Notes: a model not told the origin generated them from the letters alone. Positions 2,106-63,157 are shown, counted from the stretch's first letter. The stretch is 64,000 nucleotides of DNA from Escherichia coli (GCF_016026235.1 NZ_CP065613.1), one strand, 5' to 3'. Program-made: numbers and translations.

Positions 2106-5100
2106 TGTCGCCGAGACACTAGATCCTTTGCGCTTGCCCTTACAGGGCGAGCGCCTGATTGAAGCCTCTGCCGGCACAGGCAAAACCTTTACGATTGCGG
2201 CGCTCTATTTGCGCCTGTTACTTGGACTAGGCGGTTCCGCCGCCTTTCCCCGCCCGCTGACCGTTGAAGAACTGCTGGTGGTCACCTTTACCGAGGCTGC
2301 CACGGCAGAATTGCGCGGTCGTATCCGTAGCAATATCCACGAGTTGCGCATCGCCTGTCTGCGTGAAACCACCGACAATCCACTGTACGAACGCCTGCTG
2401 GAAGAGATCGACGATAAAGCGCAAGCCGCGCAGTGGTTGTTGTTAGCCGAACGGCAGATGGATGAAGCGGCAGTCTTTACTATTCACGGCTTTTGCCAGC
2501 GCATGCTCAACCTGAATGCCTTTGAATCCGGCATGCTGTTTGAGCAGCAGCTGATTGAAGATGAGTCTCTGCTACGTTACCAGGCCTGCGCCGATTTCTG
2601 GCGTCGCCACTGCTACCCGCTGCCGCGTGAAATAGCCCAGGTCGTCTTTGAAACCTGGAAAGGGCCGCAGGCGTTGCTGCGCGATATTAATCGTTATCTG
2701 CAAGGCGAAGCGCCGGTTATCAAAGCACCGCCGCCCGATGATGAAACGCTGGCTTCCCGCCACGCGCAAATTGTGGCGCGTATTGCTACGGTAAAACAGC
2801 AGTGGCGCGACGCAGTGGGTGAACTGGATGCGCTGATCGAATCTTCTGGTATTGACCGACGCAAGTTTAACCGTAGCAATCAGGCTAAATGGATCGACAA
2901 GATCAGCGCCTGGGCAGAAGAAGAGACCAACAGTTATCAGTTGCCGGAGTCGCTGGAAAAATTCTCCCAGCGTTTCTTAGAAGATCGCACGAAGGCCGGG
3001 GGGGAAACCCCGCGACATCCACTGTTTGAGGCGATCGATCAACTGCTTGCAGAACCATTGTCGATCCGCGATCTGGTGATCACCCGCGCATTGGCTGAGA
3101 TCCGCGAAACAGTAGCGCGTGAAAAACGCCGCCGTGGCGAATTGGGTTTTGATGACATGTTAAGTCGGCTCGATTCCGCGCTGTGTAGCGAAAGCGGTGA
3201 GGTGTTGGCAGCGGCGATCCGTACGCGATTCCCGGTGGCAATGATCGATGAATTTCAGGATACCGACCCCCAGCAGTACCGAATTTTTCGCCGTATCTGG
3301 CACCATCAGCCGGAAACCGCATTGTTGCTAATTGGCGACCCGAAGCAGGCCATATATGCATTCCGGGGTGCGGATATCTTCACTTATATGAAGGCGCGTA
3401 GCGAAGTTCACGCCCACTACACTTTAGACACCAACTGGCGTTCCGCACCAGGAATGGTGAACAGCGTGAACAAGCTTTTCAGCCAGACTGATGACGCGTT
3501 CATGTTTCGCGAAATACCGTTTATTCCAGTGAAATCAGCCGGGAAAAATCAGGCGTTACGTTTTGTATTTAAAGGTGAAACGCAGCCTGCGATGAAAATG
3601 TGGCTGATGGAAGGCGAAAGCTGCGGCGTTGGCGATTATCAAAGTACCATGGCGCAGGTATGTGCTGCGCAAATCCGCGACTGGCTACAAGCCGGACAGC
3701 GAGGCGAAGCGTTGCTGATGAACGGCGACGACGCGCGTCCGGTGCGTGCTTCGGACATCAGCGTGCTGGTGCGCAGCCGCCAGGAGGCCGCCCAGGTGCG
3801 CGATGCCTTAACGTTGCTGGAAATCCCTTCCGTTTACCTTTCGAACCGCGACAGTGTTTTTGAAACTCTGGAAGCGCAGGAAATGCTTTGGTTGTTGCAG
3901 GCGGTGATGACGCCCGAACGTGAGAACACCCTGCGTAGTGTGCTGGCAACGTCAATGATGGGGCTGAACGCGCTGGATATCGAAACGCTGAATAATGACG
4001 AACATGCGTGGGACGCGGTGGTCGAAGAGTTCGATGGTTATCGGCAAATTTGGCGCAAACGTGGCGTTATGCCGATGCTGCGGGCGCTGATGTCGGCGCG
4101 TAACATTGCAGAAAACTTGCTGGCAACGGCAGGCGGTGAGCGGCGTCTTACCGATATCTTGCATATCAGCGAACTGCTACAAGAAGCCGGAACGCAGCTG
4201 GAAAGTGAACATGCCCTGGTACGCTGGTTATCGCAACATATCCTCGAGCCAGACAGTAATGCCTCCAGCCAACAAATGCGCCTCGAAAGTGATAAACATC
4301 TGGTGCAGATTGTCACGATCCATAAATCGAAAGGGCTGGAATATCCGCTTGTCTGGTTGCCATTTATTACCAATTTCCGCGTCCAGGATCAGGCGTTTTA
4401 TCACGATCGCCACTCGTTTGAGGCTGTTCTGGATCTTAACGCTGCGCCAGAAAGTGTCGATCTCGCGGAGGCCGAACGTCTGGCGGAAGATCTGCGTTTG
4501 CTTTACGTGGCGCTGACGCGTTCGGTTTGGCATTGCAGTCTCGGCGTTGCACCGCTGGTGCGCCGTCGTGGCGATAAAAAAGGTGACACCGACGTCCACC
4601 AAAGTGCGCTCGGGCGTTTGCTGCAAAAAGGGGAACCGCAAGATGCGGCAGGGCTTCGCACCTGTATTGAAGCGTTATGCGATGATGATATTGCCTGGCA
4701 AACGGCACAAACTGGTGATAACCAGCCCTGGCAGGTTAATGATGTTTTAACTGCAGAACTGAATGCGAGGACGCTACAACGATTGCCCGGCGATAACTGG
4801 CGTGTCACCAGCTACTCCGGTTTGCAGCAGCGTGGTCACGGTATCGCTCAGGATCTGATGCCACGGCTGGATGTTGATGCCGCAGGCGTGGTCAGCGTCG
4901 TTGAAGAACCGACGTTAACACCGCATCAATTCCCGCGCGGTGCGTCACCGGGGACATTCTTGCACAGTTTGTTTGAAGACCTCGATTTTACCCAGCCGGT
5001 TGACCCGAACTGGGTGCGGGAAAAACTGGAACTCGGCGGCTTTGAATCGCAGTGGGAACCGGTATTGACCGAGTGGATCACGTCTGTCCTCCAGGCACCT

Positions 5101-5640
5101 CTCAATGAAACCGGCGTAAGCCTGAGTCAACTTTCCGCCCGCAATAAACAGGTGGAGATGGAGTTTTATCTGCCGATTAGTGAACCGCTTATCGCCAGTC
5201 AGCTTGATACGTTAATCCGCCAGTTTGACCCGCTATCCGCTGGCTGCCCGCCGCTGGAGTTCATGCAGGTACGCGGCATGTTAAAAGGCTTTATCGACCT
5301 TGTGTTCCGCCACGAAGGGCGTTATTACCTGCTCGACTATAAATCCAACTGGTTGGGTGAAGACAGTTCGGCTTACACCCAACAGGCTATGGCAGCGGCG
5401 ATGCAGGCACACCGCTATGATCTGCAATATCAGCTTTATACCCTGGCGCTGCACCGTTATCTGCGCCATCGCATTGCTGATTACGACTATGAGCGCCACT
5501 TTGGCGGCGTTATTTATCTATTCCTGCGTGGTGTTGATAAAGAACATCCGCAACAAGGGATTTACACAACCCGCCCCAACGCCGAGTTGATTGACCTGAT
5601 GGATGAGATGTTTGCCGGTATGATCCTGGAGGAGGCGTAA
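2098..5640 (+). CDS. recB: RecBCD exonuclease V beta subunit (helicase/nuclease)
   Basis: 1180 codons from ATG 2098 ([32 protein letters not shown], Walker A); the track ORF starts 9 nt upstream at a GTG. Confidence 0.95.
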
Positions 5641-9090: not shown

Positions 9091-10344
9091 ATGTCAGGAT
9101 CCAACACTGCAATCAGCCGTCGTCGTTTACTGCAAGGCGCGGGTGCCATGTGGCTATTGAGCGTAAGTCAGGTCAGTCTGGCTGCGGTCAGCCAGGTCGT
9201 GGCGGTGCGCGTCTGGCCTGCGTCCAGCTACACCCGCGTGACGGTAGAATCAAATCGTCAGCTGAAATATAAGCAGTTCGCGTTGAGTAACCCGGAACGC
9301 GTGGTGGTGGATATCGAAGATGTAAACCTGAACTCGGTACTCAAGGGGATGGCGGCACAAATTCGTGCAGACGACCCGTTCATCAAGTCGGCGCGCGTCG
9401 GGCAATTTGACCCGCAAACCGTACGGATGGTTTTTGAATTAAAGCAAAACGTAAAACCGCAGCTGTTTGCCCTTGCGCCGGTCGCCGGGTTTAAAGAGCG
9501 TCTGGTGATGGACCTCTATCCGGCCAATGCACAGGATATGCAGGACCCGCTGCTGGCGCTGCTGGAGGATTACAACAAAGGCGACCTCGAAAAGCAGGTG
9601 CCACCAGCGCAAAGTGGTCCACAACCAGGTAAAGCAGGGCGCGATCGTCCGATTGTCATTATGCTTGACCCTGGCCACGGTGGCGAAGACTCCGGTGCGG
9701 TGGGGAAATACAAAACGCGCGAAAAAGACGTGGTATTGCAAATAGCTCGCCGTCTGCGCTCTCTGATCGAGAAAGAGGGCAATATGAAGGTGTACATGAC
9801 GCGCAATGAAGACATCTTCATTCCGTTGCAAGTGCGCGTTGCAAAAGCCCAGAAACAGCGTGCTGACCTGTTTGTCTCTATCCATGCCGACGCCTTTACC
9901 AGTCGTCAGCCGAGCGGTTCCTCTGTGTTTGCGCTCTCAACCAAAGGTGCAACCAGTACTGCGGCAAAATATCTGGCACAAACCCAGAACGCCTCGGACT
10001 TGATTGGTGGCGTGAGCAAAAGCGGTGACCGCTATGTCGACCACACCATGTTCGATATGGTGCAGTCGCTGACCATTGCCGACAGCCTGAAGTTTGGTAA
10101 AGCGGTACTGAATAAGCTCGGTAAAATCAACAAGCTGCATAAAAATCAAGTTGAACAGGCCGGGTTTGCCGTACTAAAGGCACCAGATATTCCCTCCATT
10201 CTGGTCGAAACGGCGTTTATCAGTAACGTTGAGGAAGAGCGTAAACTGAAAACGGCGACCTTCCAGCAGGAAGTTGCAGAGTCTATTCTTGCAGGGATTA
10301 AAGCGTATTTTGCCGATGGAGCGACGCTGGCGAGAAGGGGATGA
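9091..10344 (+). CDS. amiC: N-acetylmuramoyl-L-alanine amidase AmiC (Tat signal peptide)
   Basis: 417 aa from ATG 9091 ([23 protein letters not shown], twin-arginine motif); the track ORF starts 30 aa upstream. Confidence 0.9.
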
Positions 10345-10375
10345 TAAAAAGGCGCTGAATGGCGCTTTTTTATAG
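10345..10375. terminator. Putative bidirectional rho-independent terminator (amiC / tRNA cluster)
   Basis: aaaaaGGCGCtgaatGGCGCtttttt: GCGC stem with flanking A and T tracts, immediately after the amiC stop. Confidence 0.45.
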
Positions 10376-10417
10376 GAGACCAGAAACAAAAAAACACCTG
10401 CTAGGGTGTTCAATAAT

Positions 10418-10494
<77 letters not shown>

Positions 10495-10518
10495 TCACCG
10501 TACTGCTTTTACTTCATC

Positions 10519-10605
<87 letters not shown>

Positions 10606-10638
10606 TCACCGTACTGCTTTACTTCATCAAATTTTAAT

Positions 10639-10715
<77 letters not shown>

Positions 10716-10923
10716 TCCGTGGATGCGCACTATACTCCGCTCGCGTTTTCATGCAACCTTTTTTTTACCCCGATCACGGATCTGGCATGATTTTGAACAA
10801 AAACAAATCACTAAAGCCTATTTTTTGTGCAAAATTTGCGTCAGGGAGAGGCTGCTCATTTCATTAAACGCGGTGGTTTGTTATCTTCGTTGCGCCTTAT
10901 TTTTTAACCTGAAGAAGAGAACA

Positions 10924-12021
10924 ATGAAAGGACGTTGGGTAAAGTACCTTCTTATGGGCACGGTTGTGGCAATGCTTGCCGCCTGCTCTTCCAAACCAAC
11001 CGATCGCGGACAGCAATATAAAGACGGGAAATTTACCCAGCCTTTCTCTCTGGTGAACCAGCCAGATGCCGTTGGCGCGCCGATTAACGCCGGTGATTTT
11101 GCCGAGCAAATTAACCATATCCGTAATTCATCACCGCGTCTGTATGGCAACCAGAGTAATGTTTATAACGCGGTGCAAGAGTGGCTGCGCGCAGGCGGTG
11201 ATACCCGCAATATGCGCCAGTTCGGCATTGATGCCTGGCAGATGGAAGGTGCCGACAATTATGGTAACGTGCAGTTTACAGGCTATTACACGCCGGTAAT
11301 TCAGGCGCGCCATACCCGCCAGGGCGAGTTCCAGTATCCGATTTACCGTATGCCGCCAAAACGTGGTCGTCTGCCGTCTCGTGCGGAGATCTACGCGGGG
11401 GCATTGAGCGATAAATACATCCTCGCTTACAGCAACTCTCTGATGGATAATTTCATTATGGATGTGCAGGGTAGTGGGTATATCGACTTTGGTGATGGCA
11501 GTCCGCTTAACTTTTTCAGCTATGCAGGGAAAAACGGTCATGCCTATCGCAGCATTGGTAAGGTGCTGATCGACCGTGGCGAAGTGAAAAAAGAAGATAT
11601 GTCGATGCAGGCGATTCGTCACTGGGGCGAAACACACAGTGAAGCCGAGGTTCGCGAGCTGCTGGAACAGAACCCGTCTTTCGTTTTCTTTAAACCGCAA
11701 TCTTTTGCACCGGTGAAAGGGGCAAGTGCGGTGCCGCTGGTTGGCCGTGCTTCTGTTGCCTCTGATCGTTCAATTATTCCGCCAGGTACAACCTTGCTGG
11801 CAGAAGTGCCGCTGCTGGATAATAACGGCAAATTTAACGGTCAGTATGAACTGCGTCTGATGGTGGCACTGGATGTCGGTGGCGCAATCAAAGGCCAACA
11901 CTTCGATATCTATCAAGGGATCGGGCCGGAAGCCGGACACCGCGCAGGTTGGTACAACCACTATGGACGTGTCTGGGTGCTGAAAACGGCTCCGGGCGCA
12001 GGTAACGTCTTTAGCGGCTGA
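10924..12021 (+). CDS. mltA: Membrane-bound lytic murein transglycosylase A (lipoprotein)
   Basis: 365 aa from ATG 10924 (MKGRWVKYLLMGTVVAMLAACSS lipobox); the track ORF 10642.. is an upstream extension running through the tRNA genes. Confidence 0.9.
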   Translation: MKGRWVKYLLMGTVVAMLAACSSKPTDRGQQYKDGKFTQPFSLVNQPDAVGAPINAGDFAEQINHIRNSSPRLYGNQSNVYNAVQEWLRAGGDTRNMRQFGIDAWQMEGADNYGNVQFTGYYTPVIQARHTRQGEFQYPIYRMPPKRGRLPSRAEIYAGALSDKYILAYSNSLMDNFIMDVQGSGYIDFGDGSPLNFFSYAGKNGHAYRSIGKVLIDRGEVKKEDMSMQAIRHWGETHSEAEVRELLEQNPSFVFFKPQSFAPVKGASAVPLVGRASVASDRSIIPPGTTLLAEVPLLDNNGKFNGQYELRLMVALDVGGAIKGQHFDIYQGIGPEAGHRAGWYNHYGRVWVLKTAPGAGNVFSG

Positions 12022-50143: not shown

Positions 50144-51457
<1,314 letters not shown>

Positions 51458-51475
51458 GACTGACTTTATCTGATT

Positions 51476-51508
51476 TAAAAATGCCAGCCTCCGGGCTGGC
51501 ATTTTTTA
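51476..51508. terminator. Rho-independent terminator (bidirectional) after eno
   Basis: aaaaaTGCCAGCCtccgGGCTGGCAtttttta: 8-bp GC-rich stem flanked by A and T runs. Confidence 0.8.
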
Positions 51509-51516
51509 TGGTTGAG

Positions 51517-52410
51517 TTACCAGCGGCCGGATGCGCCGCCACCTCCAGAAGAACCGCCACCGCCGCTAAATCCGCCGCCACTTGAGCCTCCACCGGAAGA
51601 GGATGAAGAAGAACCTTTTCTTGAAGCTCTTTCTTTACTGAGTTTTTTGTATTTGGCGCGTAGCTTTTTATTGACGATAAGCCAAAAAATAACCAGTGGT
51701 ACGATCGCAAAAGGCGTTAACATACCGCAGGCAACGATTAAATTGGTCCATGGTCCTGGCTCGGCAACATAGAGGAATACCATCCCGTAAATGGCGCCAG
51801 TGAGAGTGATCTAGGGTAAATTCGACGGATCGGTAAAAACAATAAAATATGAAAGTACCGCCAGCAATATAATTACAGCAAGCGATAATGGAATAGGGGG
51901 ATTGATACTGTAATAATCCCCCCTGTCTTCCGGTAATTCACCATTTAACAGAAGCGCGCCGATATTTTCGCTTGCCAGTGTTAATCCACCCATCAGGTCA
52001 TCACTTTTGAAGGCAGGGATCAATATATCCCTGATAATCTTCGCCGCTTGCAGGTCGGTAACCACCCCTTCCAGCCCGTAGCCAACCTCAATACGAACAG
52101 CATGATCCTCCTAGGCAACCAGAAGTAAAATACCATCGTTTCTCTGCTTATCTCCCAGTTTCCAGCTATCAAAAACCCTTGTAGCATATTGTTCAATGGA
52201 ATCGTCTCCGGTGGACGGCACTACTAATACAGCGACCTGCGCCCGTGTTTTATGTGTAATATCCTGCAGTTGCTGTGTCAGTGATTGTTGTTCAGAAGTG
52301 CTTAACGTACCAGTAATATCGGTCACCTGTTGGCGCAGTTCCGGCACAGCAATTTGCTGGGCAAGCCCAGGAAGGCACCACAAAGTGAATAGAATAAAGA
52401 TTAAGCGCAT
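51517..52410 (-). pseudogene. ygcG: TPM-domain protein (YgcG-like paralog 3) with two in-frame amber stops
   Basis: One continuous frame (signal peptide MRLIFILFTLWCLPGLA, TPM domain, TM region, Gly/Ser-rich tail ...GGGGSSGGGGASGRW) is broken by TAG at 52111-52113 and 51811-51813 (plus strand CTA); the first aligns to a conserved Trp in the paralogs (LLLVAWQDH). Confidence 0.7.
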
Positions 52411-52415
52411 TACGA

Positions 52416-53564
52416 TCACCAACGGCCGGATGAACCGCCGCCTCCTGAAGAACCGCCACCACCGCGGAAAGAATTTCTCGACGAAGAGCGAGAATGAGCA
52501 TTACGATTCCCCGTTTTCCTGTTGCTTTTTTCTCCTGACCCCAGCTTAAGATTGCCAGTAAATTTGGCCACAATGATCAGCAGAACGATGCCAGCAATGG
52601 TTATTGGGCCGATAAAATGATCAATTAACCCAATAATTGTTGAGATGAATGCAATATCTTTATTACTGGCGAACACCAGGCACCATCCCACAATAATTAT
52701 CAGCATCACGACAAACAATGAATTTCGTCCTGATTCACGAACCTGCGGAGTCTTCTTTTGTTTTTTCACTTTAGCGTTTTTATTTTTTGGGGGCAGCATC
52801 ATAGGAAATACGCGGCACATATTAAAAACTACCGCGAGACGCTGCTTGCAGGTTGTTGCTAACAATAAACTAAAACAAACGACCGATACCCGCCGAATGA
52901 TGACATCGTCCTGAAAGGAGAAAAACCAGACCATAGGGGTAATCATCGATATCATCCATATGCCACGCCGTGGGCGGCTGGCAAATCGCCAGAGGACAAC
53001 GATGGCAACGATCATCAGCAGTGTCCAGGCAAGACATGGCAGCGAACGTTGCGGATTAGCAAACAGATGATTGGCTAAAGCATCCAAAGGGCTAAGGTTC
53101 GCTTTGATATGGGTAAACTGTGCGATGCTTTCAATTCCGCCCGTTAATCCAGCAAAGAGATTGTTTTTTTCGAATTCTGGCTGCATATGGTAACGAACAA
53201 TTTGCGCAGCTTGTTCCGGCGGCAACATCTCTTCCAGTCCATGTCCAATCTTCATTGACGCCAGCCCTTCCGGCCAAACGACGAGAATTAAGATACCTTC
53301 GCCATATCGCTTCTCTCCAACGGGTTTCCAGTGATATACCCCGTAGCTCTGCGAGGCTGCAAGTTTAATGTTTTTGCCCCCTGTTGTCGGCGTAACCAAC
53401 ACGGCCACCTGGAAGTGGTTTTGCTGCTCGAGAGTCTGTAATTGTTGATTTAAAGCACTTTGTTCTTCTGTCGTTAATGTCCCGGTTAAGTCAGTCACTG
53501 AAGGCAATCGTTCAGCGAATACCTGAAAACCGCATAGCATCAGAAGTAAGAGAAAAATACGCAT
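52416..53564 (-). CDS. TPM-domain membrane protein (paralog 2), Gly/Ser-rich C-terminus
   Basis: 382 aa; signal peptide, TPM-like N-terminal domain, several hydrophobic segments, tail ...RGGGGSSGGGGSSGRW. Confidence 0.75.
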   Translation of the reverse strand: MRIFLLLLMLCGFQVFAERLPSVTDLTGTLTTEEQSALNQQLQTLEQQNHFQVAVLVTPTTGGKNIKLAASQSYGVYHWKPVGEKRYGEGILILVVWPEGLASMKIGHGLEEMLPPEQAAQIVRYHMQPEFEKNNLFAGLTGGIESIAQFTHIKANLSPLDALANHLFANPQRSLPCLAWTLLMIVAIVVLWRFASRPRRGIWMISMITPMVWFFSFQDDVIIRRVSVVCFSLLLATTCKQRLAVVFNMCRVFPMMLPPKNKNAKVKKQKKTPQVRESGRNSLFVVMLIIIVGWCLVFASNKDIAFISTIIGLIDHFIGPITIAGIVLLIIVAKFTGNLKLGSGEKSNRKTGNRNAHSRSSSRNSFRGGGGSSGGGGSSGRW

Positions 53565-53578
53565 ATCAATTCCTTTTG

Positions 53579-54472
53579 TTACCAGCGCCCGGAAGCGCCA
53601 CCGCCACCAGATGAACCGCCACCACCGCTAAAATTGTCATTGTCGAATGAAGAGGATGACGATGATGAATAGTGGGAGGAAGAATTGCTTCTTGTATGGC
53701 GTGATGGCTGGTTGGCATCACGCATCGAATCTCGAACCTTTTTGCCGAAGGGGGTAAAAGCGATGGCAACTGCCAGGAACGGTGTGGCGAAGCAGAGTAA
53801 TGTTGCGAGTACTCCCCAGCTTCCGCTGAAACCTGCTATAGGTAAAACAAAGGCCAGTACAATAGCTGCGAAACAAATTACTCCCAGCGTTTTGATATAT
53901 CCTCTGGCAGAAATAAACGTCAGTACTATCGCCCAGACTAACAAAGCCCACCAACCGCTAAAGGGTAAAGGGTGATCGGTCGGTGTTATCGTTGCTAAAT
54001 TATTCCCCGTCAGACGACTTTCAAGATCGCTGATCCCCTTTTGTAAACCGACAGCAAGATCGCCCTTTTTAAACGCTGGAATAATACTGTTGCGTATAAT
54101 TTGCCCGGACTGCGCATCCGTAATAATACCTTCCAGTCCGTAACCAATTTCAATACGCACGGTATGATCCTGCCAGGCGACTAACAGTAGAACGCCATCA
54201 TCGCGGTCTTTATCACCCGGTTTCCAGCTATCGAATACCCGCGTTGCGTACTGCTCGATGCTTTCATCGCCTGTTGTTTCAACCACTAACACGACCAACT
54301 GTGCGTGGTTTTTTTGCGTCAGGGCTTTGATCTGGTTGGTCAGGGTGTTTACTTCGCTATTTGTTAATGTGCCGGTTAAGTCATTCACATACCTGGGTGA
54401 TTCAGGTACTGGAATTTGTGTGGCAAACACAGATGAACAGAAGAAAGCCATAAGGAAGATAAAATTTCGCAT
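53579..54472 (-). CDS. TPM-domain membrane protein (paralog 1), Gly/Ser-rich C-terminus
   Basis: 297 aa from ATG 54472 (MRNFIFLMAFFCSSVFA signal peptide; GGGGAAG-type SD upstream); tail ...SGGGGSSGGGGASGRW. Confidence 0.75.
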   Translation of the reverse strand: MRNFIFLMAFFCSSVFATQIPVPESPRYVNDLTGTLTNSEVNTLTNQIKALTQKNHAQLVVLVVETTGDESIEQYATRVFDSWKPGDKDRDDGVLLLVAWQDHTVRIEIGYGLEGIITDAQSGQIIRNSIIPAFKKGDLAVGLQKGISDLESRLTGNNLATITPTDHPLPFSGWWALLVWAIVLTFISARGYIKTLGVICFAAIVLAFVLPIAGFSGSWGVLATLLCFATPFLAVAIAFTPFGKKVRDSMRDANQPSRHTRSNSSSHYSSSSSSSFDNDNFSGGGGSSGGGGASGRW

Positions 54473-54485
54473 AGAACTTCCCCGC

Positions 54486-55088
54486 TTAATGAGCACTAGC
54501 ATTCTGGCTAAAATCTATTGTTGGTGCTTTACTCACAGCGGCGACATCATCCGGCAAATAATTTTTCTTTGGTGTGTAATCCATGACCTTTGCGGTTAAC
54601 ACAGCGGGGAATTTGCGGATAGTGACATTATATTGTTCAATGGCTTTAATATATCTTCCTCGCGCAACGGCAATCCGATTTTCACTTCCTTCAAGCTGTA
54701 CCATTAAATTTTGATAGAGTTCCTGAGATTTTAACTCAGGGTAACGCTCACTAATTATCGTTAACTGACCGAGAGTGCGAGTCACCTGCGCTTGAGCCTG
54801 TTGCCAGGCTTGTAATTTTTGTTCATCTCCCGGAGTTTGCTGAAGATCGCTACTGGCGCGATTAGCCTGGCTACGAGCCAATGTTACGGCTTCCAGTACA
54901 TCTCGTTCATGGCTGGAATAACCTTTAATACTGGCGACAAGATTAGGAATAAGATAGGCGCGACGTTGATATTGATTCAATACCTCAGACCAGGAGGCGT
55001 TAACCTGCTCATCATAGGTTTGAATATCGTTATATCCACAGCCTGATAAATTGAAAATAAATATAATTACGATGAATATTCTGAGCAT
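54486..55088 (-). CDS. lemA: LemA-family membrane protein
   Basis: 200 aa; N-terminal hydrophobic segment with lipobox-like LSGCG; LemA-like body; first gene of an operon with the TPM genes. Confidence 0.75.
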   Translation of the reverse strand: MLRIFIVIIFIFNLSGCGYNDIQTYDEQVNASWSEVLNQYQRRAYLIPNLVASIKGYSSHERDVLEAVTLARSQANRASSDLQQTPGDEQKLQAWQQAQAQVTRTLGQLTIISERYPELKSQELYQNLMVQLEGSENRIAVARGRYIKAIEQYNVTIRKFPAVLTAKVMDYTPKKNYLPDDVAAVSKAPTIDFSQNASAH

Positions 55089-55260
55089 GTTTAAATCCCT
55101 TTTAATTAATTCCTTAAAACATAATACTCTGCTTCATTTTATTCTTTATGATCTAATCCACTTTTTGCCATAAACCTGCCTGTAACAGAATGTTAATAAG
55201 ACATGATTGTTGTGGCAGGATCTGCAATAATTAACAATTATCCACTTCACAGAGAATGCT

Positions 55261-55932
55261 ATGCAGTACCCGATTAACGAGATGTTCCAGACCCTGCAAG
55301 GTGAGGGTTACTTTACCGGCGTCCCCGCCATTTTTATTCGTTTACAGGGATGCCCGGTTGGCTGTGCCTGGTGCGACACCAAACACACCTGGGAAAAGCT
55401 TGAGGATCGGGAAGTCTCCCTTTTCAGCATTCTGGCGAAGACCAAAGAGAGTGATAAGTGGGGGGCGGCGAGCAGTGAAGACTTGCTGGCTGTCATTGGT
55501 CGCCAGGGATATACCGCGCGGCATGTGGTGATTACGGGTGGTGAGCCTTGCATTCATGATTTGCTGCCACTGACTGACCTGCTCGAAAAGAACGGTTTTA
55601 GCTGCCAGATCGAAACCAGTGGTACTCATGAAGTACGCTGTACACCGAATACCTGGGTTACCGTATCGCCAAAGCTGAACATGCGCGGCGGCTATGAAGT
55701 GTTGTCACAGGCACTGGAGCGAGCCAACGAAATCAAGCATCCAGTGGGACGCGTACGTGATATTGAAGCACTGGATGAACTTTTGGCGACGCTGACCGAT
55801 GATAAACCGCGAGTCATTGCACTGCAGCCGATTAGCCAAAAGGATGATGCCACACGTTTGTGCATTGAAACCTGCATTGCGCGTAATTGGCGTTTGTCGA
55901 TGCAAACCCATAAATATTTAAATATTGCCTGA
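55261..55932 (+). CDS. queE: 7-carboxy-7-deazaguanine synthase (radical SAM)
   Basis: 223 aa; cysteine motif CPVGCAWCDT; matches recalled QueE/YgcF. Confidence 0.9.
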   Translation: MQYPINEMFQTLQGEGYFTGVPAIFIRLQGCPVGCAWCDTKHTWEKLEDREVSLFSILAKTKESDKWGAASSEDLLAVIGRQGYTARHVVITGGEPCIHDLLPLTDLLEKNGFSCQIETSGTHEVRCTPNTWVTVSPKLNMRGGYEVLSQALERANEIKHPVGRVRDIEALDELLATLTDDKPRVIALQPISQKDDATRLCIETCIARNWRLSMQTHKYLNIA

Positions 55933-56270: not shown

Positions 56271-56523
56271 GAGTTCCCCGCGCCAGCGGGGATAAACCGA
56301 TGACAAAAATTTGCAGGTGCTGGCAGAGGCCGAGTTCCCCGCGCCAGCGGGGATAAACCGTCAGGTGGGATGGTCAGCGCGAAACACACGCCGAGTTCCC
56401 CGCGCCAGCGGGGATAAACCGAGCGCGCAGTTATCAGCCGCGACAACATGAAAGAGTTCCCCGCGCCAGCGGGGATAAACCGCTCATATACGTTACAGCG
56501 TCGGAAATGGAGGCGAGTTCCCC

Positions 56524-57815
56524 TGAGGAATCCCCAGAAAACAAGACAGGCATAGTGAGATGTGATCTAATTGATTGTGCTAACAATTTCAAGGAGATCA
56601 CCACTATGCCTGCACGTTCATTATGCCAAAATTTCCTTAACAACATACTGGCCCCTTTGCATCTTTACCGTCAAAAATCACTGATTGACGCAACTAATGC
56701 TGTAATAAATGGCGCTTCCCTCACACTTACCAGTATCGGGCGTCATTTAACCGGTACGGCATCAGTTAAAAACAAAATAAAGCGGGTGGATCGACTGTTG
56801 GGGAATCGACATTTGCAAAATGAGGTTTCCACCATTTTTCAGCGAATTACCCAAAAGATTACGCGGGGAATGTCTCGTGTTGTGATACTCATTGACTGGA
56901 GTGCTTATCATGCCTCTCGTTTTCAGCTTTTGCGGGCAAGCCTGGCATGTGACGGGCGTTCTTTACCGTTGATGAGTTGTGTCGTTCCATCATCACAGAC
57001 AGCGAATGCAGATGTACATGAGCGTTTTCTGGAATCGCTTGCTGAGTGCTTTTCCCCCGGGACTGATGTCATTGTTATTACAGATGCCGGTTTTCAGGGG
57101 CGATGGTTCCAACAGCTCCGCTCCCGTGGCTGGACCTATATTTGCCGGGTACTGGGCAATCATTATTACAATGTTGGTAATGGCTGGGAAAAGGTGTCGG
57201 ACTCAGGCACAAAAGCATCAACGACAGCAATTTATTTAGGTGAAGGCCTGCTGGGTCGAGATAAAAATGCACAACATGAAGGGCATTTTTATCTTTATAA
57301 AAGTAAGCCTAAAGGTCGTAGATTTAAACGCTCGAAGGAAAGAGCAACCAGACCATCGGTGACGGCTAAAGCTCGTACTGCCGGGAAATCACCATGGTTT
57401 ATTTTCACAAACAGTACTGAGTTCTCGCCAAAACAGGTAATGAAATTATACAGCCGTAGAATGCAAATTGAGCAAAATTTCAGGGATGAAAAAAATCCTC
57501 GCTGGGGATTTGGACTACGGTTTGGTGCCAGTCATTCATCCGGGCGGGTCACGGTATTGAGTCTGATCGCAACATTAGCCAGTATCATTATGTGGTTAAG
57601 CGGTTTCAGCCTGGAAAACAAAGGGATACATCATAAATATCAGGCAAATACAGTGAAGCACAGGCGAGTCATCTCGTTATTAAAACTGGCGGAGAATGTG
57701 ATTCGACATTCTCCACTCATACTAAACACACTGTCACTTGACGCAGGGCTGAAAGTTCTACAGCAACGGTATACCAATATGATAATGGTTTACTAAATTT
57801 TCTGGGGATCCCTCA
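56524..57815 (+). mobile_element. IS4-family (IS10-like) insertion sequence, copy 1, inside a CRISPR repeat
   Basis: ~1.29 kb; imperfect terminal inverted repeats CTGAGG(A/G)ATCCCCAGAAAA; flanked by a direct duplication of 10-12 bp of repeat sequence (GCGAGTTCCCC); one transposase ORF. Confidence 0.85.
56606..57796 (+). CDS. IS4-family DDE transposase (IS10-like)
   Basis: 396 aa from ATG 56606 (AAGGAG SD); shares recalled IS10 transposase motifs (KRVDRLLGNRHL, LIDWS, ITDAGF, YSRRMQIEQNFRD, YQANTV); the track ORF start at 56507 is read-through from spacer 4. Confidence 0.8.
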   Translation: MPARSLCQNFLNNILAPLHLYRQKSLIDATNAVINGASLTLTSIGRHLTGTASVKNKIKRVDRLLGNRHLQNEVSTIFQRITQKITRGMSRVVILIDWSAYHASRFQLLRASLACDGRSLPLMSCVVPSSQTANADVHERFLESLAECFSPGTDVIVITDAGFQGRWFQQLRSRGWTYICRVLGNHYYNVGNGWEKVSDSGTKASTTAIYLGEGLLGRDKNAQHEGHFYLYKSKPKGRRFKRSKERATRPSVTAKARTAGKSPWFIFTNSTEFSPKQVMKLYSRRMQIEQNFRDEKNPRWGFGLRFGASHSSGRVTVLSLIATLASIIMWLSGFSLENKGIHHKYQANTVKHRRVISLLKLAENVIRHSPLILNTLSLDAGLKVLQQRYTNMIMVY

Positions 57816-58316
57816 GGCGAGTTCCCCGCGCCAGCGGGGATAAACCACCATATAACCCGTTATCTCTTTCTCAAGTTTTTATATTAGCAGTACTTGTAAT
57901 AAGCAACATATCCACGTAACACCTCATGTTCAAAATAGTTCTCCATGCCAGAGAAGTTCACAATTATCGATACAAAAAATTAAGTTTAATCAAAGTATTA
58001 TTTGTATGATTCTTAAATCATTAAGAAATTTTAATATATTATTTTTTTAATATTAATTAATGCCTGTTAATTTTTGCTTAAGTATAACAGTGTATTTTTT
58101 AAGCTTGTTATTCATTGATTAAGTAATAAATCTGGAAGTTTGTCTTTGTTTTGAGGCTAATGAGTGGTTTTACATAACCGCCTCTATACGCTGTTGATGA
58201 ATAGTTCTTATGAATAAAGATATTCAGTTCATACTTTAAGTGAAAATTGATAAAGTGCGATTCGTATTGTCTTTTATTCTAAAGACATCGAGTGTAGTTA
58301 ATATTCCTTGTAAAAA

Positions 58317-58376
58317 CAGGGATAAACCGAACTAGTTAAAGTTTTTATTATGTTCCCCGCGTCAGCGGGGATAACC
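58317..58376 (+). repeat. Degenerate CRISPR repeat remnant
   Basis: cagggataaaccg, then ~22 bp, then GTTCCCCGCGTCAGCGGGGATAACC (diverged from the canonical repeat), preceded by ~450 bp of AT-rich sequence. Confidence 0.55.
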
Positions 58377-58423
58377 ATTCAGGTATGTTCAGGCCGGGCT
58401 GTTTCCCGCCCGGCCTTCCTCAC

Positions 58424-59902
58424 TTACGCATTCGACCAGCTCTGGATCGAATCCGCATTCCCCAATTCCCCATGCATCACTTCATACGATTTTTTCAGGA
58501 TCACATCAGTATGTTTGGTTAGGTCTTTGAAAATGCCTTTATTCATCGCGTCGTAGCGTTTGGCATTGCTCTCAACAGGCATAAAGATATCTTTCACGCG
58601 AACCATTTTGTCGACAGCCGTTGCGTAATCCGGGTATAGCCCCAGACCTACCGCCGTATTGATCGCTGCCCCCAGACTTGCACAACCGTTAATGGCGTTA
58701 CGGCGTGCCGGAAGGTTGAACACGTCGGCAAAAATTTGCATAAACAGATCGCTGTTCGAACCGCCGCCAGTAATGATCACATGCTTTGCAAAGTGATTCA
58801 TTTCATTACACATATTGTCGTAATTGTTCTTCAGCGTCAGCGCCACGCTTTCCAGTATCGAACGATATATCCATGCGTAATCCATGCTGGAATCAAAGCC
58901 GATCATAATCCCGCGTTTGTACGGTTCCCACGGATTGGTCAGCCAGTCCAGCACCGTCATCAGCCCATTACAGCCAGGTGGCACACTAGAGGCTTTCTTG
59001 TTGAGTAAATCTTCCGGTGAAAGATCCTGAGCCCTGGCATCCTGAATTAACGACTCGCCTAGCATGTCGCGCAGCCAGCTCACCGTCCACATGCCTTTGC
59101 GAATACCGTAACCTTCATACAGCAATGTTTGCGGAATAGAAGACATAATCGGCCAGTACGCCACCGGATCTTTCGGCAGTGCTTTGCCGTTCATCATCAA
59201 TGCGATGTAAGTGCCAAGAGAAATTACCGCAGTTTCATCATCCAGTAATCCGGCCCCCAGAGCTTCTACCGGTTTATCACTGGTGGTACAAACAACCGGC
59301 AGTCCTGCCGGGAAATGTGTCGCCAGTGCGGCTTGTGGTGTGATATGTCCGAGGACGGTGCCAGGCATTTGCACATCAAACAGCATATGACGGGGGATAT
59401 TAAACTTCTCCATTACCGCAGCATCTTCGCTCCATGCCCAGCTCTTATAATCCACCGGCCACTGACCAAAATAGTTGGCGATATTGTCTTTAAACTCGCC
59501 GGTTAAGCGATGCGTCAGATAACCCGAAAAAGAGGTGACATAGGCCACGTCAGGATTAGTGTGTTCGTAGGGACGCGTTACGCGTGCATCCTGCCAGCTA
59601 ATCAATGGCGCAGCTGGCGTGCCATCGGCTTTCAATAACGCACGGCAGCAACGGATGGATCCCAGACCAATACCGACAATATCTTCTTTATTCCCGGCAA
59701 ACTGACTCATCAAATCGTGACCGGCAAAACATAATGATGCCCATAAATCGTCGTCAGGATGTTCTGCGGTATCGGCATCTGGCGTGTGCATCGGCTGCAA
59801 TAAGCCTTTACCTTCGCAAACCACATTACCTTCCAGATCGTACATCACCACTTTTGTGCTCTGACTTCCGCCATCAATCCCTATGATGTATTTTTTCGAC
59901 AT
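58424..59902 (-). CDS. ygcE: FGGY-family sugar kinase YgcE
   Basis: 492 aa; MSKKYIIGIDGGSQSTKVVMYDLEG...; glycerol/xylulose-kinase-like. Confidence 0.85.
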   Translation of the reverse strand: MSKKYIIGIDGGSQSTKVVMYDLEGNVVCEGKGLLQPMHTPDADTAEHPDDDLWASLCFAGHDLMSQFAGNKEDIVGIGLGSIRCCRALLKADGTPAAPLISWQDARVTRPYEHTNPDVAYVTSFSGYLTHRLTGEFKDNIANYFGQWPVDYKSWAWSEDAAVMEKFNIPRHMLFDVQMPGTVLGHITPQAALATHFPAGLPVVCTTSDKPVEALGAGLLDDETAVISLGTYIALMMNGKALPKDPVAYWPIMSSIPQTLLYEGYGIRKGMWTVSWLRDMLGESLIQDARAQDLSPEDLLNKKASSVPPGCNGLMTVLDWLTNPWEPYKRGIMIGFDSSMDYAWIYRSILESVALTLKNNYDNMCNEMNHFAKHVIITGGGSNSDLFMQIFADVFNLPARRNAINGCASLGAAINTAVGLGLYPDYATAVDKMVRVKDIFMPVESNAKRYDAMNKGIFKDLTKHTDVILKKSYEVMHGELGNADSIQSWSNA

Positions 59903-59928
59903 GATTTTTCTCCTGTAATTTTCCTGGC

Positions 59929-61983
59929 TTACTTGCTGCTAGCTATTGCGGGGGCGCTATCAGCAGTACGAATTTTTTGGAACAGCAAAAAGGTAAAGAC
60001 GATCACCATGCCGAGCGCCGCCATGCCCATCAGCCACATATTGCGGTAGGCTTCTGCTGCGGGCAGGGTGTCTTGCCAGTGGCCGATAATTGGGTAAACG
60101 AAGACATCCGGCAGGAATCCTATCACCGAACAAATACCTACCGTGGTGCCCATAATGTAAGACGGTGTTCTCGCTTCGCCGGGGCAGGCCCAGTACAGTC
60201 CACGTGAGGCGTAGCAGGTGAATCCCAGCAGTAAAATCAGGCCAATCCCCATTGCGACCGATTGCGGGTTAGAGTTGGTAACAAGCAGGGCAGTCAGTGC
60301 CAGCAGGCCGATGATGGAAAGGATTTGGATCACGCGGGTAGGGGATTTCACTTTGCTGTAGGTGGTGATTATGCCGCCAAGTGGGCCGCACAGCGCGCGG
60401 AATATTTTGTTGATCACAATCCCCATGTAGCTCGCCGCCACCAGCGACATGCCGTACATTTCGGTCAGATAGTTGGTGGAGGTAATGACTCCAACTTATT
60501 GATAGTGTTTTATGTTCAGATAATGCCCGATGACTTTGTCATGCAGCTCCACCGATTTTGAGAACGACAGCGACTTCCGTCCCAGCCGTGCCAGGTGCTG
60601 CCTCAGATTCAGGTTATGCCGCTCAATTCGCTGCGTATATCGCTTGCTGATTACGTGCAGCTTTCCCTTCAGGCGGGATTCATACAGCGGCCAGCCATCC
60701 GTCATCCATATCACCACGTCAAAGGGTGACAGCAGGCTCATAAGACGCCCCAGCGTCGCCATAGTGCGTTCACCGAATACGTGCGCAACAACCGTCTTCC
60801 GGAGACTGTCATACGCGTAAAACAGCCAGCGCTGGCGCGATTTAGCCCCGACATAGCCCCACTGTTCGTCCATTTCCGCGCAGACGATGACGTCACTGCC
60901 CGGCTGTATGCGCGAGGTTACCGACTGCGGCCTGAGTTTTTTAAGTGACGTAAAATCGTGTTGAGGCCAACGCCCATAATGCGGGCAGTTGCCCGGCATC
61001 CAACGCCATTCATGGCCATATCAATGATTTTCTGGTGCGTACCGGGTTGAGAAGCGGTGTAAGTGAACTGCAGTTGCCATGTTTTACGGCAGTGAGAGCA
61101 GAGATAGCGCTGATGTCCGGCGGTGCTTTTGCCGTTACGCACCACCCCGTCAGTAGCTGAACAGGAGGGACAGCTGATAGAAACAGAAGCCACTGGAGCA
61201 CCTCAAAAACACCATCATACACTAAATCAGTAAGTTGGCAGCATCACCGTTGGTGGAGTAACTCAGAATGGCGTAGATGGTGAAGACACCAAAAATCACC
61301 ATGCTGCAATACCAGGTGGTGCTGATGCGCAAAACGGCCAGGATGTCGCTAAGCTGGAATGATTGTTTTTCTTCGTTATTGGCACTGCGCAGGTTGTTGT
61401 TATCGCTAACAAAAAACCAGCACAGAATCCCCAACAAGATGTAAACCACACTATAGATGATAATGACCGTTTTCAGGCTGGTGCTGTCATCCGGTGCAAA
61501 GCGAGAAAAAACCCACATGGTAAACACTGCCAGCGACATTACACCGACGCCGCGCAGCCCTTCCATCCAGCCCATAATTTTCCCTTGCTCGCTATGATCG
61601 CCAAGCAACGAGGCGGCTTTAATCGACACCGACCACAGCATTAAAATCGTCGTTATCGCAAATGCGACCTGAATACAGAGCATTACCCACAGCGGTGGAT
61701 ACGTTGCCATTAACAGACCCAGTAATCCGGTAATGATCATCGCGGAAGTAATCATTTTGCGATGTGAGAATTTATCGGCAATAACGCCGCTGGGGGCATA
61801 AAGAATAATAGCTGCAATACCAAAGGTACTCATTATTAAACCTATCTCGGTATTGCTGAATCCCATAAATTTCGCCATGGGAATTTGATAAATATAACGT
61901 AAATAAGCCAGGTCGAAACTAACGCCGCCGCTAAAACTAATTATCGCGAGGGTTATCCAACGGCGATATGAGTTGTGTTGCAT
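59929..61983 (-). pseudogene. yqcE: MFS transporter YqcE-like, disrupted by IS1
   Basis: N-terminal part 61249-61983 and C-terminal part 59929-60480 are in the same reading frame across a 768-bp IS1 plus 9-bp duplication; together ~425 aa. Confidence 0.8.
60481..61248 (-). mobile_element. IS1: IS1 insertion sequence (insA 60918-61193, insB 60496-60999)
   Basis: 768 bp; ends GGTAATGACTCCAACTTATTGAT (plus strand) and reverse complement of GGTGATGCTGCCAACTTACTGAT; InsA ([23 protein letters not shown]...) and InsB ORFs; 9-bp target duplication GTTGGTGGA at 60472-60480 and 61249-61257. Confidence 0.95.
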
Positions 61984-62234
61984 ATCGTATTCCCATTTGT
62001 AATAGACAAAAAAAAGAGAAAAGTAAGCCGCCCTTTCAGGTGGATTACTTTTCTCAGGTCTCTAGTAATTGAAATAATAAATAACATGGAAAGCAGAGGT
62101 GTTGTGTGAGAGTAATCACGCTTCTGCTTTTTAAAACTATTTGATAATGCGAATATCACACTGTGATTACGATCACATTAGCAGTTATGTCCTTATGCTA
62201 AAAATTATCTCCAGTTACCAGAGATAATGAGAAA

Positions 62235-62278
62235 GGTAACTTCCCTCTCGCGGGGGAAGTTACCTTTCTTTTTTTTTT
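62235..62278 (+). terminator. Hairpin plus T-tract in the ygcW 5' region (terminator- or attenuator-like)
   Basis: GGTAACTTCCCtctcgcGGGGAAGTTACC (11-bp perfect arms) followed by tttcttttttttttt, ending ~25 bp before the ygcW ATG. Confidence 0.5.
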
Positions 62279-62302
62279 GCCTTACGGAAATTGGAGCTAA
62301 CT

Positions 62303-63088
62303 ATGTCAATCGAATCTCTCAATGCGTTCTCAATGGATTTTTTCTCCCTGAAAGGTAAAACCGCAATTGTTACCGGCGGGAATAGCGGTTTAGGCCAGGC
62401 ATTTGCCATGGCGTTGGCCAAAGCAGGCGCAAATGTCTTTATTCCAAGTTTTGTCAAAGATAACGGCGAAACAAAGGAAATGATTGAAAATCAGGGTGTT
62501 GAGGTGGACTTCATGCAGGTGGATATCACCGCAGAAGGCGCGCCGCAGAAGATTATCGCTGCCTGCTGTGAGCGTTTCGGTACAGTTGATATTCTGGTTA
62601 ACAATGCCGGTATTTGTAAGCTGAATAAGGTGCTGGACTTCGGTCGTGCCGACTGGGATCCAATGATTGATGTGAACCTGACCGCCGCATTCGAGTTAAG
62701 CTACGAAGCGGCAAAAATTATGATCCCGCAGAAAAGCGGTAAAATCATTAATATCTGTTCATTGTTCTCTTACTTAGGTGGACAATGGTCACCTGCATAT
62801 TCTGCCACTAAACATGCTCTTGCCGGATTCACCAAAGCTTATTGTGATGAACTAGGTCAATATAATATTCAGGTAAATGGTATTGCCCCTGGCTATTATG
62901 CAACAGATATTACGCTGGCGACACGCAGTAATCCAGAAACCAATCAGCGCGTTCTTGATCATATTCCAGCAAACCGTTGGGGCGATACTCAGGATTTAAT
63001 GGGCGCTGCCGTATTCCTCGCAAGTCAGGCATCGAATTATGTCAACGGGCATTTATTAGTGGTCGATGGCGGTTATTTAGTGCGCTAA
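62303..63088 (+). CDS. ygcW: Short-chain dehydrogenase/reductase YgcW
   Basis: 261 aa from ATG 62303 (GGAG SD); TGGNSGLGQA Rossmann motif and YSATK catalytic motif. Confidence 0.85.
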   Translation: MSIESLNAFSMDFFSLKGKTAIVTGGNSGLGQAFAMALAKAGANVFIPSFVKDNGETKEMIENQGVEVDFMQVDITAEGAPQKIIAACCERFGTVDILVNNAGICKLNKVLDFGRADWDPMIDVNLTAAFELSYEAAKIMIPQKSGKIINICSLFSYLGGQWSPAYSATKHALAGFTKAYCDELGQYNIQVNGIAPGYYATDITLATRSNPETNQRVLDHIPANRWGDTQDLMGAAVFLASQASNYVNGHLLVVDGGYLVR

Positions 63089-63157
63089 TCCATAACGGTG
63101 GTTTCTGTTTTCTCTTATTAATGATTATTCCATTTTTATTATCAGGAAGGAATTACT

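Follow-up and report, generated by a model that had tools for sequence, protein, structure and literature searches.

A complete IS1 element of the IS1A type lies within the coding sequence of yqcE, a predicted MFS transporter gene, in the 64-kb stretch of Escherichia coli DNA analysed here (hereafter, the window). The yqcE::IS1 allele is a textbook simple insertion of IS1, known in kind and present in public assemblies. We consider it highly probable that the account holds as a whole, namely that an IS1A-type element transposed into yqcE and inactivated it, that the event was recent, and that it forms part of a neutral, IS-driven decay of the locus. The interrupted gene, the element and the junctions between them comprised the following features:

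59929-61983, minus strand: whole interrupted yqcE ORF, from the ATG at 61983 to the stop codon at 59929-59931
61249-61983, minus strand: yqcE 5' fragment, codons 1-245, matching K-12 YqcE residues 1-245 at 99.6% amino acid identity
59929-60480, minus strand: yqcE 3' fragment, codons 243-425 plus stop, matching K-12 YqcE residues 243-425 at 97.8% amino acid identity
60481-61248, minus strand: complete IS1, IS1A-type isoform, 768 bp, with its transposase genes in the direction of yqcE
60481-61248, as read on the plus strand: IS1 ends, starting with GGTAATGACTCCAACTTATTGAT and finishing with ATCAGTAAGTTGGCAGCATCACC (sequence re-read over 59700-62300)
61226-61248: IRL, the insA-proximal end of IS1, GGTGATGCTGCCAACTTACTGAT on the minus strand
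60481-60503: IRR of IS1, GGTAATGACTCCAACTTATTGAT
60918-61193, minus strand: insA, intact, 91 aa, with zinc-ribbon and HTH domains
60496-60999, minus strand: insB (insB' frame), intact, a 167-aa ORF with the DDE catalytic domain
60936-60942, minus strand: A6C motif (AAAAAAC) for -1 programmed frameshifting, joining insA to insB'
61241-61214, minus strand: sigma-70-like promoter match within IRL
60472-60480: left-hand copy of the 9-bp target duplication, GTTGGTGGA
61249-61257: right-hand copy of the 9-bp target duplication, GTTGGTGGA, which is yqcE codons 243-245 on the minus strand
IS1/yqcE junctions: TCAGATAGTTGGTGGA running into GGTAATGACTCC, and GCAGCATCACC running into GTTGGTGGAGTAACTC

The element is a member of the IS1 family, whose characteristics are a size of about 768 bp, imperfect terminal inverted repeats of ~23 bp that begin with GGT, and a target duplication of 9 bp or, occasionally, 8 bp. 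It was identical at 767/768 positions to the IS1A annotated in K-12 MG1655 (NC_000913.3, 19796-20563), with which it shares the length of 768 bp, the terminal repeats, insA/insB', the A6C site and a 9-bp target duplication. It differs from that copy by one base (window position 60987, synonymous in insA) and by its location, as it lies inside yqcE at a site that is unoccupied in K-12. The terminal inverted repeats delimited by a repeat finder were 23 nt long, with 18/23 (78%) of the positions complementary. The insA product was identical to that of K-12 and matched the Pfam families PF03811 (1.3e-21) and PF12759 (4.7e-31), that is, Zn_ribbon_InsA and HTH_Tnp_IS1, and the insB frame matched DDE_Tnp_IS1 (PF03400, E = 5.9e-78). 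Against the NCBIfam model NF033558 (transpos_IS1, cut-off 100 bits), the insB-frame ORF scored 143.7 bits and insA alone 91.3 bits, the latter under the cut-off. Simulating the -1 shift at A6C produced an InsAB' protein of 232 aa, identical to that of the K-12 IS1A. With intact genes, the A6C motif and an InsAB' identical to the K-12 protein, the copy therefore looks fully transposition-competent, as far as can be judged from its sequence. The sigma-70-like match within IRL is presumably the insA promoter. No second IS1 copy was found in the 64-kb window by self-comparison.

Both copies of GTTGGTGGA abut the ends of IS1, and no further plus-strand copies occur in the 64-kb window. By chance, a perfect 9-mer would match at two positions fixed beforehand with a probability of about 4^-9 = 4e-6. 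The duplicated bases read TCC ACC AAC, the codons for S-T-N. Formally, the repeat identity extends to 10 nt, with the first G of IS1 being the same as the base that follows the right-hand repeat; the length of the duplication was set at 9 bp on the strength of both the canonical ends of IS1 and the empty site. The empty site was found in E. coli FDAARGOS_943 (NZ_CP065615.1), whose intact, annotated yqcE was identical to the reconstructed gene at 1278/1278 positions and which carries the target once, in the context CATTTCGGTCAGATA-GTTGGTGGA-GTAACTCAGAATGGC. K-12 likewise has a single copy of the target at its empty site. The event was a simple insertion that duplicated 9 bp. As the reconstructed gene equals the FDAARGOS_943 yqcE and is free of any other lesion, IS1 is taken to be the inactivating event, and an evolutionarily recent one. 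A composite transposon or recombination between IS1 copies was ruled out, given the single IS1 in 64 kb and flanks that rebuild a perfect gene. An earlier note on this DNA had described a complete 768-bp IS1 with terminal repeats and insA/insB, flanked by a 9-bp direct repeat, and had named a missing duplication or missing terminal repeats as grounds for abandoning that description. Both are present: the element at 60481-61248 has 23-nt arms and two intact frames, and GTTGGTGGA occupies 60472-60480 and 61249-61257.

Joining 59929-60480 to 61258-61983 restored a 425-codon ORF of 1278 nt on the minus strand. The reconstructed gene was 97.3% identical to K-12 yqcE (b2775) at the nucleotide level, and its product was identical at 420/425 amino acids (five differences). 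The 425-aa protein matched Pfam MFS_1 (PF07690) over residues 22-363 with 90.3 bits (E = 1.5e-25), compared to a curated cut-off of 33.4 bits. When K-12 YqcE was aligned to the window by tblastn, residues 1-245 were placed at 61983-61249 and residues 243-425 at 60480-59932, with the three-residue overlap between the halves corresponding to the duplicated S-T-N codons. The order of genes was the same as in K-12: ygcE (58424-59902, minus strand), yqcE, ygcW (62303-63085, plus strand) and ygcU (63158 onward, plus strand). By sequence and position, the interrupted gene is the yqcE orthologue, a predicted MFS transporter gene. The identification of the transporter ORF as yqcE in the earlier note was thus borne out by the MFS_1 match, the ygcE-yqcE-ygcW-ygcU synteny and the alignment to the uninterrupted K-12 gene, a comparison that the note had proposed, and so was its claim that the transporter is split into N- and C-terminal fragments, since K-12 YqcE residues 1-245 and 243-425 flank IS1. 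In the portions available of the literature on yqcE, ygcP, ygcW and ygcU, a functional characterisation of the transporter or of the cluster was not found, and neither was yqcE in the accessible titles or abstracts of papers mentioning the gene. The available parts of PMC1794230 and PMC12595684 assign no substrate to YqcE, and those of PMC12595684 list yqcE as an 'extended-core' gene.

We assessed the consequences of the insertion for yqcE via the hydropathy of its product and the ORFs that remain. A crude Kyte–Doolittle scan of YqcE gave about 10-12 hydrophobic segments, with a hydrophilic central loop at approximately residues 192-221 followed by a helix at residues 222-240. The insertion point falls after codon 245, just past predicted TM7; with helix 222-240 lying beyond the central loop, a break after residue 245 would therefore leave TM1-7. 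The 5' ORF continues for eight codons (GDAANLLI) into IS1 up to a stop codon at 61222-61224, encoding a chimeric product of 253 aa (245 YqcE residues and eight IS-encoded residues). The longest internal ORF of the 3' fragment starts at the ATG at 60459 and encodes 176 aa. No promoter-like sites were predicted between IS1 and the yqcE 3' fragment or ygcE; the sites predicted on the minus strand were restricted to the region upstream of yqcE and to the IRL of IS1. The transport function of yqcE has almost certainly been lost, because a transporter of the 12-TM type is cut after TM7 and its 3' remnant has no predicted promoter.

We also considered that yqcE might not be inactivated, either because its halves are expressed apart and reassemble or because IS1 drives the 3' fragment and ygcE. 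It is generally known from work on LacY that the halves of a split MFS permease can complement each other if they are co-expressed on purpose. In the window, insB' and the yqcE 3' fragment share a reading frame, with the insB stop codon between them, and the in-frame ATG at 60459 begins the ORF of 176 aa. However, YqcE is split after TM7 rather than in the central loop, its N-terminal product ends in a foreign tail of eight residues, and the 3' fragment has no promoter-like site upstream. IS1 classically exerts strong polarity whichever way it is inserted, and its own promoter is repressed by InsA, which also speaks against expression driven by the element. We regard continued function of the split transporter as very improbable and retain its inactivation.

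The gene downstream of yqcE is the following:

58424-59902, minus strand: ygcE, encoding an FGGY-family sugar kinase of 492 aa, intact, starting 26 nt past the yqcE stop codon

Judging from this arrangement, ygcE is probably co-transcribed with yqcE and exposed to the polarity of IS1. Given the classical polarity of IS1 and the distance of 26 nt from the yqcE stop codon to the ygcE start, expression of ygcE is probably lowered.

The distribution of the insertion was estimated from the chimeric product and from the junction. The exact 253-aa product was encoded on 11 contigs; the NCBI assemblies among their sources number at least five, and the Logan runs two. Among these, a 4.56-Mb contig of GCA_900449985.1 was 100% identical to window positions 57222-64000. 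The further carriers were four GCA_0019073xx/0019075xx assemblies and the Logan assemblies ERR926423 and SRR3000442. The short-read carrier contigs stop inside IS1 or near its end, as expected at a repeated element, and two of them carry a SNP. The contiguous yqcE::IS1 junction was detected in 0/5,426 complete RefSeq E. coli genomes, including in a search with a 100-bp junction query. As the junction is shared by at least five assemblies and two runs and found in none of the 5,426 complete genomes, yqcE::IS1 is fixed in one IS-rich, Shigella/EIEC-like lineage.

These carriers bear directly on the idea that the insertion is an assembly artefact or was gained during laboratory passage of one isolate. 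Assemblers can misplace IS1, which is a repeated element, and IS1 also transposes in stab cultures. Nevertheless, two independent read sets and no fewer than five separate NCBI assemblies contain the same chimeric ORF, some of them with a flanking SNP, and the 9-bp duplication is perfect and the empty site in the relative FDAARGOS_943 precise. This explanation is effectively refuted, and we assign it a close to negligible probability. The insertion is accordingly treated below as a feature of a natural lineage.

The prevalence of yqcE itself among the complete E. coli genomes was high (5,051/5,426). In total, 27 complete-genome records spanned at least 80% of the yqcE::IS1 query. Each of the three that were inspected had IS1 elsewhere within yqcE; the span of the other records was unlike the query length, placing IS1 elsewhere nearby. 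DP051 carries an independent IS1 in yqcE with its own 9-bp duplication, CTCATTATT (4133-4900 of the extracted locus), and E08 carries another, with the duplication GGCGACCTG (3967-4734 of the extracted locus). In Ec-RL2-1X, the far side of IS1 (approximately 4473-5240 of the extracted locus) joins ygcU, with the yqcE 5' part, ygcW and the ygcU 5' part deleted; two more records share its match pattern (pattern only). Three other genomes have IS1 about 0.4 kb from the insertion site of the window. The DP051, E08 and Ec-RL2-1X cases resemble the window insertion in the element family and the gene, DP051 and E08 also in the 9-bp duplications, but their IS1 copies occupy other yqcE positions and belong to other isoforms (94.5% and 96.4% identical to the window copy), and Ec-RL2-1X differs further in its deletion reaching ygcU.

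We compared these counts to a rough expectation. Approximately 74,000 places with an IS1 end were found in 5,317 genomes, about 13 per genome. With uniform insertion, a 1.28-kb gene in a genome of about 5 Mb would be expected to carry IS1 in about 0.3% of cases, or about 18 genomes, compared to about eight observed with IS1 in yqcE. These numbers therefore point neither to a hotspot nor to selection, and yqcE as an IS1 hotspot was ruled out on this basis.

The window as a whole is colinear with K-12 from ptrA-recBD to ygcU, with most proteins 99-100% identical, and contains three IS within 64 kb. The first of the other two is an IS4-family element of 1294 bp at 56523-57816, with a 429-aa transposase ORF at 56507-57796; we refer to it as ISEc60-like, after the PGAP label of its relatives. 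It entered the type I-E CRISPR array that lies between queE and ygcE, where a repeat begins, and duplicated 10 bp, GCGAGTTCCC, now found at 56513-56522 and 57817-57826. Four perfect repeats of the array occupy 56273-56482, and the fifth lies at 57821-57847. The ISEc60-like element is at the same CRISPR position in FDAARGOS_943, and thus, the CRISPR insertion predates yqcE::IS1. A second, inverted ISEc60-like copy starts at 63583, continues past the end of the window (64000) and truncates ygcU after codon 148. This copy was 99.3% identical to the first over the 425 bp in the window, and its full-length version showed five differences. In the 4.56-Mb contig, its transposase was called as two ORFs (238 and 118 aa), and its far side abuts ygcN at nt 804, resulting in a 5.2-kb deletion of the ygcN 3' end, ygcO, ygcP, ygcQ, ygcR, ygcS and two thirds of ygcU. 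These oppositely oriented copies (56523-57816 and 63583 onward) bracket the locus, but an inversion of the DNA between them was ruled out, as gene order and orientation are colinear with K-12. The ygc locus is not uniformly degraded, with ygcE and ygcW still intact ORFs.

Decay of the same cluster took an independent route in FDAARGOS_943, the closest complete relative. There, ygcW is truncated by a divergent IS1 (91% identical to that of the window) in the region 10046-11505 of the extracted locus, and ygcW'-ygcP is lost, with the DNA up to ygcO missing.

The ISEc60-like sequence was 100% identical on a plasmid of FDAARGOS_943 and on a 294-kb plasmid of CFSAN029787, and 99.8% identical on two S. 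dysenteriae plasmids. We take CFSAN029787 to be an EIEC strain and its large plasmid to be pINV. With three IS in 64 kb, the size of the 4.56-Mb contig and an ISEc60-like element found on EIEC and S. dysenteriae plasmids, the lineage of the window appears Shigella/EIEC-like. A density of three IS per 64 kb is typical of Shigella/EIEC and not of ordinary E. coli, and in Shigella most conserved pseudogenes are IS-interrupted, with IS1 being the dominant IS (Hawkey et al. 2020, PMC7373316). The yqcE::IS1 allele resembles the IS-pseudogenes of that study in that IS1 is the sole lesion in an otherwise perfect gene of a transport/carbohydrate locus, the neighbours of which have been removed by another IS and an adjacent deletion. 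The supplementary tables of PMC7373316 yielded no entry for yqcE or the ygc genes.

The recurrence of IS events in the cluster raises the alternative that yqcE and the ygc cluster are lost under pathoadaptive selection in invasive lineages of the Shigella/EIEC type, rather than by neutral decay. In the window lineage, IS1 in yqcE is accompanied by the ISEc60-like copy in ygcU with its 5.2-kb deletion; in FDAARGOS_943, ygcW is hit by a different IS1 variant and the accompanying deletion extends to ygcO; IS1 entered yqcE independently in DP051 and in E08, each time with a separate 9-bp duplication; and Ec-RL2-1X and two similar records show an IS1-associated deletion from yqcE, with three genomes having IS1 about 0.4 kb off. 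Yet the frequency of IS1 in yqcE does not exceed chance (about eight observed, about 18 expected), most of the other cases come from commensal, animal or environmental E. coli rather than invasive lineages, and yqcE is kept in 5,051/5,426 genomes. The frequency data lend no support to a convergent, selected loss of the cluster, and we find selected loss highly improbable. The same holds, to an equal degree, for the broader proposal that the cluster (yqcE-ygcE / ygcW-ygcU-ygcS-ygcR-ygcQ-ygcP-ygcO-ygcN) is an unrecognised target of convergent loss, an 'antivirulence' catabolic locus, in invasive Shigella/EIEC. If it were true, yqcE::IS1 would be one of several independent disruptions of the cluster. 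Neutral decay thus remains the preferred reading.

The region between yqcE and ygcW is intact in the window and contains the following features:

61984-62302: divergent yqcE/ygcW control region, 99% conserved across five genomes
62162-62177: CRP-type palindrome TGTGATTACGATCACA, in the control region
62233-62204, minus strand: promoter-like site for yqcE

In the portion available of PMC1794230, yqcE and ygcW are among the top-ranked sites predicted by PhyloScan. The ygcW leader (62085-62305, plus strand) was 99% conserved in five genomes, more than the yqcE coding DNA, and its predicted fold was unusually stable (-75.5 kcal/mol, z = -7.3). It contains terminator-like hairpins with U-runs at approximately 62092-62130 and at 62229-62270; the latter has a 19-bp stem and T10 and ends about 20 nt ahead of the ygcW ATG. 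In K-12, the cluster includes the gene for YgcP, a protein that carries the annotation 'putative anti-terminator regulatory protein', and for this reason the ygcW leader may be controlled by antitermination; ygcP is deleted in the window lineage. Comparison to Rfam yielded no RNA family match in the ygcW leader, and none in or beside yqcE::IS1.

Several other differences from K-12 and a repeat were observed elsewhere in the window. Compared to K-12, gudX (glucarate dehydratase-related) has a deletion of 1 nt in a CCC run at approximately 38536-38538 (gudX nt 1183), which shifts the frame at codon 395/396. On this evidence, gudX is a probable second pseudogene in the window, one not caused by an IS. 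The eno-queE interval (51457-55261) is unlike that of K-12, with ygcG/yqcG replaced by other genes, and self-comparison revealed a tandem duplication with a 111-bp period at 10416-10717, which corresponds to the metZ-metW-metV initiator-tRNA triplet. The features concerned are:

54486-55088, minus strand: LemA-family gene, eno-queE interval
53579-54502 and 52416-53564, minus strand: two TPM-domain genes, eno-queE interval
51772-52410, minus strand: ygcG-like remnant with stops, eno-queE interval
10421-10494, 10532-10605 and 10642-10715, minus strand: metZ, metW and metV tRNAs

Taken together, we propose that a transposition-competent IS1 of the IS1A type moved into the coding sequence of yqcE. 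In the ygc carbohydrate-type cluster of E. coli/Shigella, yqcE and ygcE probably form a transporter-kinase unit in which yqcE comes first. The DDE transposase InsAB', produced by -1 frameshifting at A6C, would have attached the ends of IS1 at a staggered cut of 9 bp in yqcE codons 243-245, and gap repair of the cut would have generated the GTTGGTGGA duplication. Frameshifting, staggered cutting and gap repair are established IS1 biology, of which the footprint is what was observed here. The split gene would yield a truncated product of 253 aa (TM1-7 and eight IS residues) and leave a promoterless 3' remnant. The insertion would be recent and fixed in one IS-rich Shigella/EIEC-like clone that was also losing neighbouring ygc genes, and would best be interpreted as part of the neutral, reductive decay of a catabolic locus that is dispensable.

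For annotation, yqcE in this genome should be labelled as an IS1-disrupted pseudogene and ygcE marked as a gene that polarity may have silenced. Being specific to the clone, the exact junction could serve as a marker to type the lineage or to date the expansion of IS1 in this Shigella/EIEC-like clone. Of little importance beyond annotation, the insertion adds one more example of the IS-driven loss of transport and carbohydrate-utilisation genes.
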